DNA of 39,288 nucleotides from a virus. Lineage: Duplodnaviria > Heunggongvirae > Uroviricota > Caudoviricetes. This document shows, in pieces, positions 2,539-6,871 of this stretch (the first letter of the stretch is position 1; each line of letters starts with the position of its first letter). The notes under the pieces were generated by a model that was given only the letters and a program-made list of their open reading frames with translations, was not told the origin of the DNA and searched no databases. The position numbers were made by a program, and so were the translations under genes. Location: the IMG/VR virus record IMGVR_UViG_2740892273_000013; one strand, written 5' to 3'.

Positions 2539-3363
2539 TCAGGCGGTGAAAGTACCAATAAAGGTTTCTACTTTGCTGTCTTTGAATTTCTCAACAAGCA
2601 GATCACGAAATTCGTTAGCCATTTCTTCCTGTACCGCTTCCAGCTGAATAATGCGCAGAACCAGTACAGGACGATCGCCAGTGATAATGCTGAGGCGTAA
2701 TTTAAACGGACGTTCTTTCAGACCTTCAAACGGAACGCATTTAAATTCAAATGCCACTGGCATAATGTCTTTGGTCTTCGCTTCGACAGACTCCATCAGG
2801 GAGCGTTTGCCGCTGAAGTCATTATCTTCAAAATCAGCGGTCTGGTTCGCTTCAATTGTGATTTTACGGATCGCCGCAGCCGCTTTGGTTGCCTGAATGG
2901 CGTCACCATTAGCATCAAAGCCCACAAGGTAGTCGGCCCAGTCTTCAATCCATTCTGCCAGTGACTTCTGGGAGTTACGCTCGCCATTAACAGACAACAG
3001 AGCAGAGAACGGAGCTGTCTTTTTCAGTTTGAGAGTGGCGGTGTTATCTGCGTGACCTGGTTCATCAATAGTACCCAGGTTAAGAACACTGACGGCACGC
3101 ATATTATCAGCATCGATAAAGCAGCGGGTGCCTTCATCTGCAAGATCTTTAGAATAACGAGTAAAGTCATCGATGCTGGCAGTGGAAAGCGCACCACGGA
3201 AACGGAAACGATTTAAATTTAATTTTTCCAGATCATGAATGCGGAAATTCTCAGGCAATGCCACAGCATCGGCACCAATCTTACTGATAATTTCATTAAC
3301 ACCCTGAGCAGAAATAAGGGCATGGATTTGATTAATTGCGGTTGCGTCTAAGTTCTGAGACAT
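2539..3363 (-). CDS. DUF2303-like (YfdQ-family) phage protein
   Basis: 274-aa ORF with GAGGA 9 nt upstream of ATG; family assignment recalled from memory (length matches YfdQ), unverified. Confidence 0.55.
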
Positions 3364-3428: not shown

Positions 3429-3791
3429 TTAATGACCTGCTGCGCGGAGTTTTCCGTCAGGTTCACCGGCAAGAGTCAGTAATTGTCCCTGGTCTTCCTG
3501 CAGAATAGTCAGGCGACCACCGCGATTGACATACATCGGCGTTTCGGTGGTGTCTTCTTCGGAAATTTTCCCGCGGTTAGTCGGGCGAACATATGAGAGT
3601 TTGTGTTTGATTTTCACACGGTTCTCATCAAATGGTTCGATTTCCAGGTTGAGTGAGACCTTACCTTTGGTTTTCGTGTTCATCACACCGGAAGCGACTT
3701 CACTGAGAACTGCGCCGATTTTGGTTTCAAATACGCCGCCGTCCAGCTCCCCAATAAATGCCTGCACATCAGTACTGCGTTCGCTAGCCAT
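3429..3791 (-). CDS. Hypothetical 120-aa protein (possibly YfdP-like), first gene of the leftward early operon
   Basis: ATG at 3791 (MASERS...) with AGGAG 8 nt upstream; the longer track ORF to 3977 crosses a structured leader and is unlikely to be translated. Confidence 0.5.
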   Translation of the reverse strand: MASERSTDVQAFIGELDGGVFETKIGAVLSEVASGVMNTKTKGKVSLNLEIEPFDENRVKIKHKLSYVRPTNRGKISEEDTTETPMYVNRGGRLTILQEDQGQLLTLAGEPDGKLRAAGH

Positions 3792-3840
3792 TTTGCTGCT
3801 CCTAATCATATCGACCCTGCAAGGTCGGTTGGTTTCTCCA

Positions 3841-3938
3841 CAAAACAGAGAAGAACACCTGCGGTGGCAGCCGCCCGGATGGATTTGGTTATGAGCCCGT
3901 CGTCCGGTGATGCTCTTCTCTGTTTTGTAAAAAGAGCG
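3841..3938 (-). promoter_or_regulatory. Structured leader element: boxA-like motif followed by a large stem-loop formed by a 14-bp perfect inverted repeat; candidate nut-like or attenuator site
   Basis: Minus-strand CGCTCTTTTTACAA (3925-3938); arms CAAAACAGAGAAGA (3841-3854) and TCTTCTCTGTTTTG (3914-3927) are exact reverse complements. Confidence 0.35.
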
Positions 3939-4411
3939 GTACCAGCCGGAAGCAAGTGTACAAACTGGTACCGCCAAAGCAGTGGCTGTTGTGGTGACCG
4001 GTGCTGATCTCCGGCTTGCGGTTATTTCAGACTCTCACGGGCGTTTAATTGCCCCGCCGAACAGCTCTTTTCCGCATTAGCTGCAATGTCTTTCGCGCAT
4101 CAGCCTGCGCATTCACCACAACGCTGAGAGCACTTAGCCAGTTACGGCACCACACTTTGTCGCGGTTCCATAAATGTCCTCATCGTTGCACCCTGGTCTC
4201 TTCCCAGGCGTCAAACCGAATCGCCACGCTGGTTAGGCGTCTTATCAGCATCATCATTGACTTGCACATTCCGGCTACCTGGTTTGTTTGCCCGAGCAAG
4301 GAGTGGATTGTCCCCTTTAACGTCCCCAGACCGCTAACGACGCATGTGCCATACGCCGTGTTACAACCAAATTTTGTTTAATCTTGCCTGTGCTGTGTTT
4401 CTTTTAGATAC

Positions 4412-4439
4412 ATTATGTATCCCAAAGGTACATTGTCAA
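4412..4439 (-). promoter_or_regulatory. PL-like early-left promoter with overlapping OL-like operator
   Basis: Minus strand reads TTGACA (4434-4439), 16-bp spacer, CATAAT (4412-4417); spacer carries ATGTATCCCAAAGGTACAT (4415-4433), related to the operators at the cI-cro interval. Confidence 0.5.
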
Positions 4440-4442
4440 GTA

Positions 4443-4464
4443 TAAAAAAACCTGCCGAAGCAGG
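4443..4464 (-). terminator. Intrinsic terminator downstream of the repressor gene
   Basis: Hairpin CCTGC-CGAA-GCAGG (4451-4464) followed on the minus strand by a run of U (complement of A-run 4444-4450). Confidence 0.55.
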
Positions 4465-4477
4465 TTATAAATATTGA

Positions 4478-5152
4478 TTAGGCCTTTATTATGTATCTTC
4501 TTGGTTTTCCTGAGAAAATCACTGTACCAATTATAGAGCAATTACCGTTAATCTTAATGTAAGGCTCAGGCCAGTTTGGGTTTAATGCTTTGAGATAACG
4601 CTGTGTTCCATCTTCTATCAACCGCTTGAAGGTGGTTTCGCCTGTATCGTGCATCAATGCAATAACGTCGTCACCGTGGCAGGCAGGGACTTCAGGATCA
4701 ACAAAAATCATGTCTCCCGGGCGGTACTCATCAATCATTGAATCACCAATCACCCGCAAGATATAAGTCATTTCGCCACAGGGTACAGGGCAGGGATAAG
4801 TTTCTGCTGTGCTCAAATCAACCTCAGAATAGCCAACTTCTTTCCATGCTCCGGCCTGTACCCATGATATGACAGGGACTAACGTTATTTGTTTGTTAGT
4901 GATTGAAACGTCAGGTTTTTTTGTGATGTTCGTTGTCTGGTGTTCTTGATCAAGCCATCCGACAGGCAGGTCGAAACATTTTTCGATGTGCCGTGCCATG
5001 CTGTCACCGATATTTTTAGTTGCACCATCTCCCATAAACCTGCTGGTCTGGGTTGGCTCGCGATCAATCATGGTGGCAAAGGAAGAATTCCCGCCAACAC
5101 CATCTCTCAGTTTTCTGGCGTTAGACCGCCGGATGTCATGGACTGTTTTCAT
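4478..5152 (-). CDS. cI: CI-type prophage repressor (N-terminal HTH, C-terminal LexA-like S24 peptidase domain)
   Basis: 224-aa translation with GDSM serine motif and downstream Lys; divergent from a cro-like gene; no SD before the ATG, consistent with a leaderless PRM-type transcript. Confidence 0.85.
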   Translation of the reverse strand: MKTVHDIRRSNARKLRDGVGGNSSFATMIDREPTQTSRFMGDGATKNIGDSMARHIEKCFDLPVGWLDQEHQTTNITKKPDVSITNKQITLVPVISWVQAGAWKEVGYSEVDLSTAETYPCPVPCGEMTYILRVIGDSMIDEYRPGDMIFVDPEVPACHGDDVIALMHDTGETTFKRLIEDGTQRYLKALNPNWPEPYIKINGNCSIIGTVIFSGKPRRYIIKA

Positions 5153-5158
5153 AAAGAA

Positions 5159-5187
5159 ATTAAAACCTTTGTACCGATAAGGTACAA
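5159..5187 (-). promoter_or_regulatory. PRM-like promoter for leaderless cI with overlapping operator
   Basis: Minus strand TTGTAC (5182-5187), 17-bp spacer, TTTAAT (5159-5164), placing the start about 7 nt downstream at the cI ATG; operator TTGTACCgataaGGTACAA at 5169-5187. Confidence 0.45.
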
Positions 5188-5192
5188 GTATC

Positions 5193-5238
5193 TTGAAGGT
5201 TCATCTCAATCATGTAATATGTATACCGGAGGTACATA
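5193..5238 (+). promoter_or_regulatory. PR-like promoter for cro with a second operator-like palindrome over the cro RBS
   Basis: TTGAAG (5193-5198), 16-bp spacer, TAATAT (5215-5220); TGTATACC-GGA-GGTACATA at 5220-5238. Confidence 0.45.
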
Positions 5239-6038: not shown

Positions 6039-6871
6039 ACAGTTTAACGGCAAATAACCGTTTGTCGCAACAGCTGGTGGTCAGCGTCGCTGAACACCTG
6101 TTGTTACGGCATGAATGCAGATTACCAAATCACCTGGCTGTAAGTAACCACAGAGAACTTTACCTGACTGTGGGGGGCGAGTTGTGCAGGAACTTAACCG
6201 CTGGTTTCGTGACGGAAGAGGACTTTATGTTCATGTTATTCGTTGGGAGCCAGAAACACAGCGCGTTATCTATCTTCGCAAAGACTACCCGCATGAGTGC
6301 TTTAGTCCTTTGTGGAAATTCAGGCGTGATTTTGTTGAGTGTGAAGGACCACCAGCACATTGATTCTGCCATTCCGGGACGTTACACTGTTCAGGCACCT
6401 TATAAAGCGGGTGCCGGGATTGGCGTCCTGGAATTGATCAAGGCGATATATGACGCGCCAGCGTCTTTTTTATCGTCCGCATTTGCTCACATCAAAGTTA
6501 TGGTGGGCTGGGCGGGGGCATCGAAAGATGCGCCGGTTTCCTTGATCACCGGTTACGCCAACCCCGTTCAGTTCACCACCAGCGAAATTGGCGTTTCCGG
6601 TGGTGGAAGTATTTCACCGATCAAGGAGGCTGCCATCATGGCTACTGTCCCAGCCCTCACTCGTCTGAATGATGAAGACTTACATAAACTCAGTTATGTA
6701 ACAACTGCACTACGTGCTCTGCGCAAGGTAACTCTTTCGGATCCGCAGGCACATCAGGTTCTGGTAGAAACCCTTCTTAACTTGCAAGCTGAACGTATTC
6801 GTCTGGCGGATAAGGCTAATTTTCATATTCACCGTCTCCTGAATATCAGCGGAGGGCATCGTCATGCTTAA
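6035..6871 (+). CDS. Hypothetical protein (278 aa)
   Basis: ATGA overlap with upstream gene suggests translational coupling; no recognisable motif. Confidence 0.4.
   Translation: MNSLTANNRLSQQLVVSVAEHLLLRHECRLPNHLAVSNHRELYLTVGGELCRNLTAGFVTEEDFMFMLFVGSQKHSALSIFAKTTRMSALVLCGNSGVILLSVKDHQHIDSAIPGRYTVQAPYKAGAGIGVLELIKAIYDAPASFLSSAFAHIKVMVGWAGASKDAPVSLITGYANPVQFTTSEIGVSGGGSISPIKEAAIMATVPALTRLNDEDLHKLSYVTTALRALRKVTLSDPQAHQVLVETLLNLQAERIRLADKANFHIHRLLNISGGHRHA

Follow-up and report, generated by a model that had tools for sequence, protein, structure and literature searches.

On the early-left leader transcript of an Escherichia coli prophage we find a chain of independently conserved, swappable structured-RNA modules, all carried by one repressor-controlled PL transcript. 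The first of them, module A, is an RNA family without an Rfam match, in which four helices are combined with a loop-to-junction pseudoknot and invariant single-stranded segments. Our preferred reading, to which we give a probability of roughly 40%, is that module A would serve as a cis-acting read-through RNA, put-like in its logic and unrelated to put itself. From 5' to 3' the transcript carries the module A core with domain 2, module B, the hairpin H1, the three-way-junction RNA H2, the small hairpin H3 and the ribosome-binding site (RBS) of the yfdP-like gene, such that a terminator-like signal (H1) precedes the first protein gene. Coordinates refer to the window, the whole 39,288-nt stretch of phage DNA that was analysed, and the RNA elements of the leader all lie on its minus strand.

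The early-left leader

The window represents a lambdoid E. coli prophage of the SfV/mEp460/cdtI type. Its cI-like repressor gene (Peptidase_S24, 224 aa; 4478–5152, minus strand; Pfam PF00717, E = 1.5e-26; phrog_4, transcriptional repressor) is followed by an intrinsic terminator (4449–4466, minus strand) consisting of a 7-bp GC-rich stem and then TTTTTAT. Directly 3' of this terminator lies the PL-like sigma-70 promoter that had been noticed in a sequence-only reading of the same DNA (4412–4439, minus strand); its elements, TTGACA-16-CATAAT, agree with the consensus at 11 of 12 positions, and from them we infer a transcription start near 4405 on the minus strand. Two operator palindromes of the form ATGTAYC-N5-GRTACAT overlap the promoter (OL, 4395–4433, no strand assigned). 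This motif has six sites in the window, as compared to 0.31 expected by chance, two of them at PL and three at PR (5169–5237), where they sit between the repressor and Cro-like genes. The arrangement is the classic OL/OR layout, and PL is repressor-controlled. Rightward of the repressor gene lie Cro-like and CII-like genes; leftward lie the yfdP-like gene, the first of the early-left operon (3429–3803 with its RBS, minus strand; ATG at 3791, AGGAG at 3803–3799; phrog_204, E = 1e-49), and next after it a yfdQ/DUF2303 gene (2539–3363; Pfam). Given this layout of repressor, promoter, operators and yfdP, the interval 3792–4440 is therefore the early-left leader.

For the ∼610 nt downstream of PL, the sequence-only reading had reported no minus-strand ORF of 60 aa or more, and the limit can be lowered: the largest contained minus-strand ORFs have 49, 39, 36, and 26 aa, and the sole longer one (182 aa, from a TTG at 3977) is an in-frame upstream extension of yfdP. 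It had also raised the question of N-like ORFs below 60 aa. The ORF list, Pfam, and PHROG revealed no N-like ORF in the leader; the 36-, 39-, and 49-aa minus-strand ORFs and a 110-aa plus-strand ORF have no Pfam hits, and one small ORF has a PHROG match, to a family of unknown function. Homologues of the small ORFs differ by indels of 1, 2, and 4 nt and by compensatory substitutions, so the leader small ORFs are not coding. On these three grounds (the Pfam and PHROG outcome, the indels, and the compensatory substitutions) we reject hidden small N-like ORFs.

The full 626-nt leader folds unusually well (z = −3.6), and BLAST against phage and E. coli collections resolves it into a mosaic of blocks with differing distributions. 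The first block is immunity-specific and includes PL. The module A block (about 4378–4116) recurs in phages of Klebsiella, Salmonella, and Enterobacter, and both it and the module B block (about 4125–3987) recur on P1-like plasmids; module C (3976–3792), which comprises H1, H2, and H3, usually accompanies yfdP. Rfam 15 yielded no overlap with 3792–4405 at E-values up to 10. Within 3792–4440 the Rfam hits are sub-threshold and fall on promoter and cI-terminator DNA (4403–4476, opposite strand), and a scan of the whole window retrieved isrK and C4 only, both outside the leader.

Module A, a conserved pseudoknotted RNA

The module A core is a pseudoknotted RNA of ∼170 nt (4189–4361, minus strand), which we describe with the covariance model R1. 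It starts about 47 nt past the inferred PL start. Helix P1 is a hairpin (4358–4338); helix P2 (4330–4327 with 4281–4278) encloses a variable hairpin and leads into the invariant GGUAGCCGGAAUGUGCAAG (4279–4261); helix P4 is a second hairpin (4240–4226), the loop of which pairs with the following junction (4234–4231 with 4217–4214) to form the pseudoknot; and helix P5 (4208–4192) is a third. Between the helices run the invariant single-stranded segments UAUGGCACAUG, AGCGGUC, and the aforementioned GGUAGCCGGAAUGUGCAAG. RNAalifold additionally proposes a long-range pairing of GCACAU with AUGUGC, invariant at every pair, that would compete with the top of helix P1; the local P1 stem, by contrast, covaries.

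Compensatory stem changes are already visible when the window copy is aligned with one Klebsiella-type phage and one P1-like plasmid. Pattern scans of viral and genome collections produced more than 250 distinct module A copies, and the structure was assessed on an alignment (A3) of 79 sequences in which the window row spans 4361–4189. The 78 distinct sequences have 98.6% of their cells paired, with changes on both sides at 12 pairs (131 cells); related sequences are included in these covariation counts, to which the pair-type and slid controls are robust. Not one of 500 shuffles attains these values, and slid controls pair at 26–57%. Pair 8:20 of helix P1 may serve as an example, with A-U in 45 sequences and G-C in 32. 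In the pseudoknot, CACC/GGUG is replaced by AACC/GGUU, and by UGGUC/GACCA in one locus (L233). The conserved G-U pairs indicate that the structure exists on the minus-strand transcript only. With R1, the window copy reaches 131 bits (E = 7e-36); run with filters off, the model finds no second copy in the 39-kb window, and thus none 3' of PR; in each of 13 loci it finds exactly one copy per phage.

The core is present in 1833 of 5426 complete E. coli genomes (about a third), in 81 phage records, and in about 20 other Enterobacterales species, and it occurs in many N-less lambdoid prophages. Four non-enterobacterial hits (L262, L266, L272, and L282) were discarded as chance 18-mers with the flanking motifs absent; three of them resemble coding sequence. 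In 10 related loci, no Rfam model overlapped the core. The GenBank and RefSeq entries examined either leave module A unannotated or place a “hypothetical protein” over it, and several such proteins in the phage entries of GenBank look like spurious ORFs. Its invariant strings were not found in the literature searched, and an earlier description may exist outside Rfam and that literature; the RNA-discovery literature examined makes no mention of module A. A preprint on Pas sRNAs was considered as an earlier description and set aside, as it concerns late-region sRNAs. The sequence-only reading did not pick out the conserved RNA at 4361–4189 either, which lies within its own interval. E. coli prophages and P1 rank among the most studied genetic elements, and a pseudoknotted RNA that P1 and about a third of complete E. 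coli genomes carry, with neither an Rfam match nor annotation in the records examined, is a real omission.

Three kinds of genomic context can be told apart. In the first, the core is the first RNA after a cI-like repressor gene and PL, as in the window, mEp460, cdtI, Ayreon, mEp390, and many IMG/VR prophages. The second is the ban-type operon of P1, P7, and D6, with the core between tRNA-Ile and ban or its D6 counterpart; in P1 it lies 2.3 kb into the operon, directly 3' of tRNA-Ile, with no obvious terminator before ban. The third is found in the epsilon15-like phages phiV10, TL-2011b, SPN1S, and Tyrion and in a Klebsiella ST512 phage, where the core sits in a small cassette oriented against the terminase and portal genes and is usually followed by tRNA-Arg(UCU). 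Contexts are not independent, and they reduce to perhaps four or five architectures. As a rule the core opens a repressor-controlled early operon, ahead of terminators that themselves lie 5' of the first protein gene. A promoter-like site lies at most 90 nt upstream of the core in 48 of 171 distinct contexts (controls, 5 and 1), the core in these 48 starting 7–55 nt past the promoter-like −10 element. Further same-strand cargo lies downstream of the core in every context examined, and terminator-like hairpins on the same strand peak 200–400 nt downstream.

Two loci illustrate the arrangement. In phiV10, an operator-like palindrome with TTGACA comes first, then the core with domain 2 and tRNA-Arg, and after them a hairpin and two terminators; an RBS and gene lie only 25 nt past the latter, a gap that leaves no room for a separate promoter. 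In locus L168, PL is followed by an ORF and then by the core; next come a terminator, which faces a convergent inserted gene, and same-strand ORFs that we read as the remainder of the early-left operon. SfV and mEp460_4F5, both sibling phages, retain H1, module C, and yfdP and lack module A, which is therefore not obligatory for the operon, unless a different 5' leader substitutes for it.

From domain 2 to the yfdP ribosome-binding site

Domain 2 (4119–4188, minus strand) is a long helix, CAACGAUGAGgaCAUU...AGUGCUCUCAGCGUUG, around a variable insert. It follows P5 in 160 of 233 distinct contexts (∼70%), the remainder having another module, a terminator, or a gene in this place. Its stem strands are conserved and its inserts differ, some of them bearing a T-arm; the window copy has one G-to-A mismatch. 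Module B (3988–4122, minus strand) is a tRNA-shaped scaffold with a hypervariable insert of 36–148 nt, built from a GUGGUGA/UCACCAC closing stem, a GCGCA-GGCUGA-UGCGC hairpin, and a CCGG-AGAUCAGCA-CCGG hairpin; 34 distinct flank versions show compensatory changes in all three stems. In sister phages the same slot, past the same spacer, is filled by tRNA-Arg. ARAGORN found no tRNA in the window and called only the genuine tRNA-Arg genes in the relatives scanned; we therefore reject the idea that module B and domain 2 are tRNAs or tmRNAs, which they resemble in shape only.

H1 (3929–3975, minus strand) has a 13-bp GC-rich stem followed by a UCUUUUU tract, and folds to −21.2 kcal/mol (z = −4.3). 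Relatives retain a covarying GGCGG...CCGCC stem and the U-run, and the phiV10 homologue was called terminator-like by our scan. The sequence-only reading had taken CGCTCTTTTTACAA (3938–3925) for a boxA-like motif. This string consists of the 3' arm of H1 and its U-tract, and it fails to match the boxA consensus GYTCTTTAANA (PMC5725501) even when one mismatch is tolerated. In relatives the hairpin and U-run persist, with CCGCACUUUUUU, CCGCAAUUUUUU, or CCGCAUUUUUUC at this position, so GCUCUUU is not conserved. With the GC-rich hairpin and U-tract kept through covariation and GCUCUUU lost, H1 is best read as an intrinsic terminator, predicted by the usual hairpin and U-tract criteria; its loop is 15–19 nt in the window, so that it may be a weak one.

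H2 (3837–3931, minus strand) is a three-way-junction RNA of ∼95 nt just upstream of the yfdP RBS. Its 23-bp closing helix (3931–3909 with 3859–3837) holds the 14-bp inverted repeat (3841–3854 and 3914–3927) on which the sequence-only reading had remarked. The repeat is real, and its arms extend to 25 nt with 84% complementarity. Inside the closing helix are two hairpins, H2a (3907–3903/3879–3875) and H2b (3874–3871/3864–3861). Folding of the minus strand, which that reading had proposed as a check, gives −47.9 kcal/mol for the repeat region (z = −7.8), a value that none of 200 shuffles attained. It had also made its case depend on conservation of the repeat in related prophages, and the helix indeed survives in Citrobacter, Kosakonia, Phytobacter, and Pseudescherichia through compensatory changes; across relatives the closing helix is 96% paired. 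A conserved GUGGAGAAAC separates H2 from H3 (3812–3827, minus strand), a small hairpin next to the RBS in which four of five pairs change on both sides in relatives. For H2 and H3 together (18 sequences), 94.1% of cells are paired, a level matched by none of 500 shuffles, and 13 pairs have changes on both sides, nine in H2 and four in H3.

What module A may do

Under the preferred reading, module A would fold on the nascent early transcript and act in cis on the polymerase transcribing it, which would thereby pass H1 and the terminators beyond it and reach the protein genes of the operon; module A would thus stand in for the missing N/nut system. Domain 2 and module B, both tRNA-like in appearance, are suggested to be processing punctuation, for RNase P or RNase E. 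The covariation of modules A and C, the promoter-proximal placement of the core, the terminators downstream of it, and the absence of an N protein all point in this direction, and from them we infer the cis model. Passage of terminators by N-less lambdoid phages (LLS, ST64B, and SfV types) is an open matter in the recent literature, for which module A, with its defined helices, offers a concrete candidate. For the related phage LLS, Casjens and colleagues report that an N homologue is absent and that the mechanism of early antitermination is unexplained, and they only speculate on put (PMC12315714).

Several observations speak against the cis model. SfV and mEp460_4F5 manage H1, module C, and yfdP without module A; each phage has a single copy with none after PR, unlike put; the core in P1 lies 2.3 kb into the ban operon with no obvious terminator ahead of ban; H1 in the window may be a weak terminator; the supporting contexts come down to a few architectures; and the tRNA and tRNA-like neighbors would suit an excised stable RNA at least as well. 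We regard as unlikely, on balance, the broader proposition that module A represents a new class of RNA polymerase-modifying processive antiterminator RNA, structurally unrelated to put, which many N-less temperate enterobacterial phages (lambdoid, P1-like, and epsilon15-like) would use to pass intrinsic terminators and long untranslated arrays of tRNAs and non-coding RNAs.

The put RNA of phage HK022 suppresses termination by binding the zinc-binding domain of the RNA polymerase beta-prime subunit. Like put, module A is a structured RNA located immediately after an early promoter of an N-less lambdoid phage and upstream of terminators, and no dedicated protein factor is apparent in either case. 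The differences are considerable: put has about 70 nt and two stem-loops, as compared to about 170 nt, four helices, and a pseudoknot for module A; put has copies after both PL and PR, unlike module A, which is single in each phage with none after PR; and module A is found also in P1-like and epsilon15-like phages beside tRNAs, its antitermination activity being a prediction. A blastn-short comparison of the PL–nun and cro–cII intervals of HK022 with the window yielded chance 9–14-mers, none significant in the leader, and R1 had no hit in HK022. Lacking sequence similarity, differing in size and fold, and having no PR copy, module A is rejected as a put homologue. The sequence-only reading had offered “a put-like cis-acting RNA, or an attenuator or sRNA” among its options for the leader; the broad direction of this suggestion holds up, and the likeness to HK022 putL and putR does not. 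A looser analogy can be drawn with the Bacillus EAR element and other RNA elements favoring terminator read-through, where likewise a conserved folded RNA begins a long operon or lies within it and has terminators downstream; sequence, host, and structure are unrelated, and the resemblance is one of analogy only.

The main alternative, which we hold to be only slightly less probable than the cis model, is that module A and domain 2 form a stable phage RNA acting in trans, excised in tRNA-like fashion from early transcripts and binding a conserved host or phage factor, for instance to serve as a decoy, to counter defence, or to hijack host machinery. The PL leader would then be a polycistronic stable-RNA precursor, and the terminators would merely end the unit, H1-type terminators supplying defined 3' ends. 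The neighborhood of the core fits well: in P1 and D6 it immediately follows tRNA-Ile, in epsilon15-like phages it immediately precedes tRNA-Arg, tRNA-shaped modules come after it, and the nearby cargo includes a DUF2829 protein, a member of the family of the anti-Thoeris protein Tad2. Its presence or absence among otherwise near-identical operons (it is absent from SfV and mEp460_4F5) is the behavior of an accessory cassette, and the invariant single-stranded segments, kept across phages of many genera, suggest a conserved binding partner. There is precedent in the same phages, the C4 RNA of P1 and P7 being matured by RNase P. More broadly, untranslated structured RNAs co-transcribed with tRNAs from an early promoter are familiar from the T4 tRNA cluster (species 1 and 2 RNAs) and from the P1 ban operon (dicF-like region, tRNAs, and C4 RNA), which itself carries module A; the leader modules differ from these clusters in matching no described stable RNA, and their processing and stability are only proposed. 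Against an excised RNA stand its strong promoter-proximal bias, which a trans-acting RNA does not need, the absence of any case in which module A is the last element of a transcription unit, and the lack of a known partner, target, or processing site. If it were nonetheless correct, module A would add a new member to the RNAs that phages express early, one with a conserved host partner, tied to phage tRNA cassettes and possibly involved in counter-defence. Whether read as a read-through RNA or as a stable RNA, module A can be annotated in thousands of genomes with the R1 covariance model.

We consider it improbable that module A or H2 is a riboswitch-like sensor of a metabolite or ion, acting through H1 or through access to the yfdP RBS. 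Both RNAs lie in a 5' untranslated region, H2 and H3 being immediately 5' of the RBS, and their complex folds, invariant junction nucleotides, and pseudoknot, together with the proposed GCACAU/AUGUGC pairing of module A that would compete with P1, would be in keeping with such a role; yet no ligand was found, the downstream cargo (tRNA, ban, yfdP, and small ORFs) has no common metabolic theme, H1 lies 250 nt from the core with no evident mutually exclusive pairing, and no Rfam riboswitch class was matched.

Hardly credible, lastly, is the nut-like site that the sequence-only reading had entertained, taken here as a boxA with a boxB-like repeat that would serve an unrecognised N-like protein or the host Nus complex: by eye CGCUCUUUUUACAA does look like boxA, but it fails the consensus and is lost from relatives as described earlier, the leader has no N-like ORF, and the repeat, unlike a boxB hairpin, closes a structured junction around 59 nt with no boxB pentaloop. 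Perfect GYTCTTTAANA matches do occur in six distinct related contexts, after a hairpin and 25–30 nt past P5. The match in L168 doubles as the U-tract of an apparent bidirectional terminator facing the convergent gene, so we do not count the six as evidence for Nus recruitment.

The leader occupies the same place as lambda nutL, between PL and the first early-left gene, and differs in having no boxA (CGCUCUUA or GYTCTTTAANA, with one mismatch allowed), no boxB, and no N protein. The lambda N leader has an RNase III-processed hairpin before the N RBS, and here too a long near-perfect duplex, of 23 bp, stands just 5' of the RBS of the first gene, with the difference that it closes a conserved three-way junction. 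H2 has the duplex of ∼20 bp or more, near-perfect, that is expected of an RNase III-processed leader hairpin; judging by this length and by analogy with the lambda N leader, it is likely an RNase III or stability element that remodels the yfdP 5' untranslated region.

Module B and other reusable elements of the leader

Module B (window 3988-4122, minus strand) is built on a tRNA-shaped scaffold in which a hypervariable insert of 36-148 nt stands at the place of an anticodon arm, and the loops of its hairpins, GGCUGAU and AUCAGC, are mutually complementary. It takes the position that tRNA-Arg holds in sister phages, and its flanks come in 34 distinct versions; copies lie at L135 2491-2666 and 2920-3095, L129 691-877, and L131 2159-2334 (L-numbers denote the related loci compared). 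Module B appears to be a separate RNA family, so far undescribed. Two hairpins are additional reusable leader modules: AAUCACGCCUyAGGACCGUGAU, which recurs 3' of tRNA-Arg or module B in many loci (e.g. L127 3316-3345), and ACCACCGAGCCUGAUGUGGUGAAAAGACAGGCA, which stands before the core, the ∼170-nt pseudoknotted RNA of module A, again in many loci. In domain 2, the long helix that directly follows the core, the window reads GAGGACAUU at position 4176 as compared to GAGGGCAUU in most relatives. This variant, found in just a few further sequences among those retrieved, leaves a single A-C mismatch in the helix.

The PL transcripts of SfV and mEp460_4F5, sibling phages without module A, open with a common sequence, ACAGGCAGGACGCCCACGAAGUAGCCG..GG.GUAUGAA (L003 about 2040-2170; L286 1850-1930), followed by an ORF. 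The common sequence can fold as nested hairpins and may be an alternative leader element.

boxA motifs and gene calls over the leader RNAs

Perfect matches to the boxA consensus (e.g. UGCUCUUUAACAA) occur in six distinct contexts (L168 3335-3375; also L145, L152, L221, L224, and L227), immediately after a hairpin and 25-30 nt beyond helix P5 of the core. The background was one match in about 209 kb of the opposite strand, and one over both strands of upstream sequence totalling about 314 kb. At L168, a membrane-protein gene converges on the motif, which looks to double as a bidirectional terminator.

Modules A and C (the latter comprising the hairpins before yfdP) are overlain by ORFs at window 4049-4381 (plus strand), 4180-4299 (minus), and 3806-3955 (minus), labelled as hypothetical proteins (mEp460 gp037, Ayreon SJJBTUD_0037, PHROG 33599). 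Because their homologues vary by frame-breaking indels and compensatory base changes, these ORFs are probably false gene calls.

Upstream motifs and cargo of the epsilon15-like cassettes

In epsilon15-like phages, TTGACA and the palindrome TTACCTTTyAGGTAA (L127 2880-2925; L130 about 1895-1925) precede the core-headed cassette situated between the genes for terminase and portal, and suggest that it is a repressor-controlled early unit. The palindrome also precedes the core in additional unannotated IMG/VR loci, which are not necessarily epsilon15-like. A Klebsiella epsilon15-like phage carries as cargo, behind the core and tRNA-Arg, a protein (L128 3511-4032) of DUF2829, a family to which the anti-Thoeris protein Tad2 belongs; at the same position, sister phages carry Sf6 gp66/N4 gp49-family or DUF551 proteins. 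The position thus resembles a slot for accessory or counter-defence genes.

Non-coding RNAs of the PR and ban-type operons

Within the PR operon of the window, Rfam matches to isrK (6395-6471, plus strand; 64 bits) and to the P1/P7-type C4 antisense RNA (6496-6583, plus strand; 82 bits) adjoin each other. Both are contained in a 278-aa ORF whose homologues in SfV and Ayreon are labelled “immunity region”, suggesting that this lambdoid prophage carries a P1-like immI module made up of C4 and perhaps an antirepressor. This finding is a further link between the prophage and P1.

Upstream of tciA in the ban-type operons of P1, D6, and P1-like elements are STnc100-like matches (L126 1571-1690; L129 1048-1168; L135 3194-3313), sub-threshold at 33-40 bits compared to the gathering score of 47. 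The P1 operon with such a match also holds an annotated dicF-like region, and is thus rich in non-coding RNAs.
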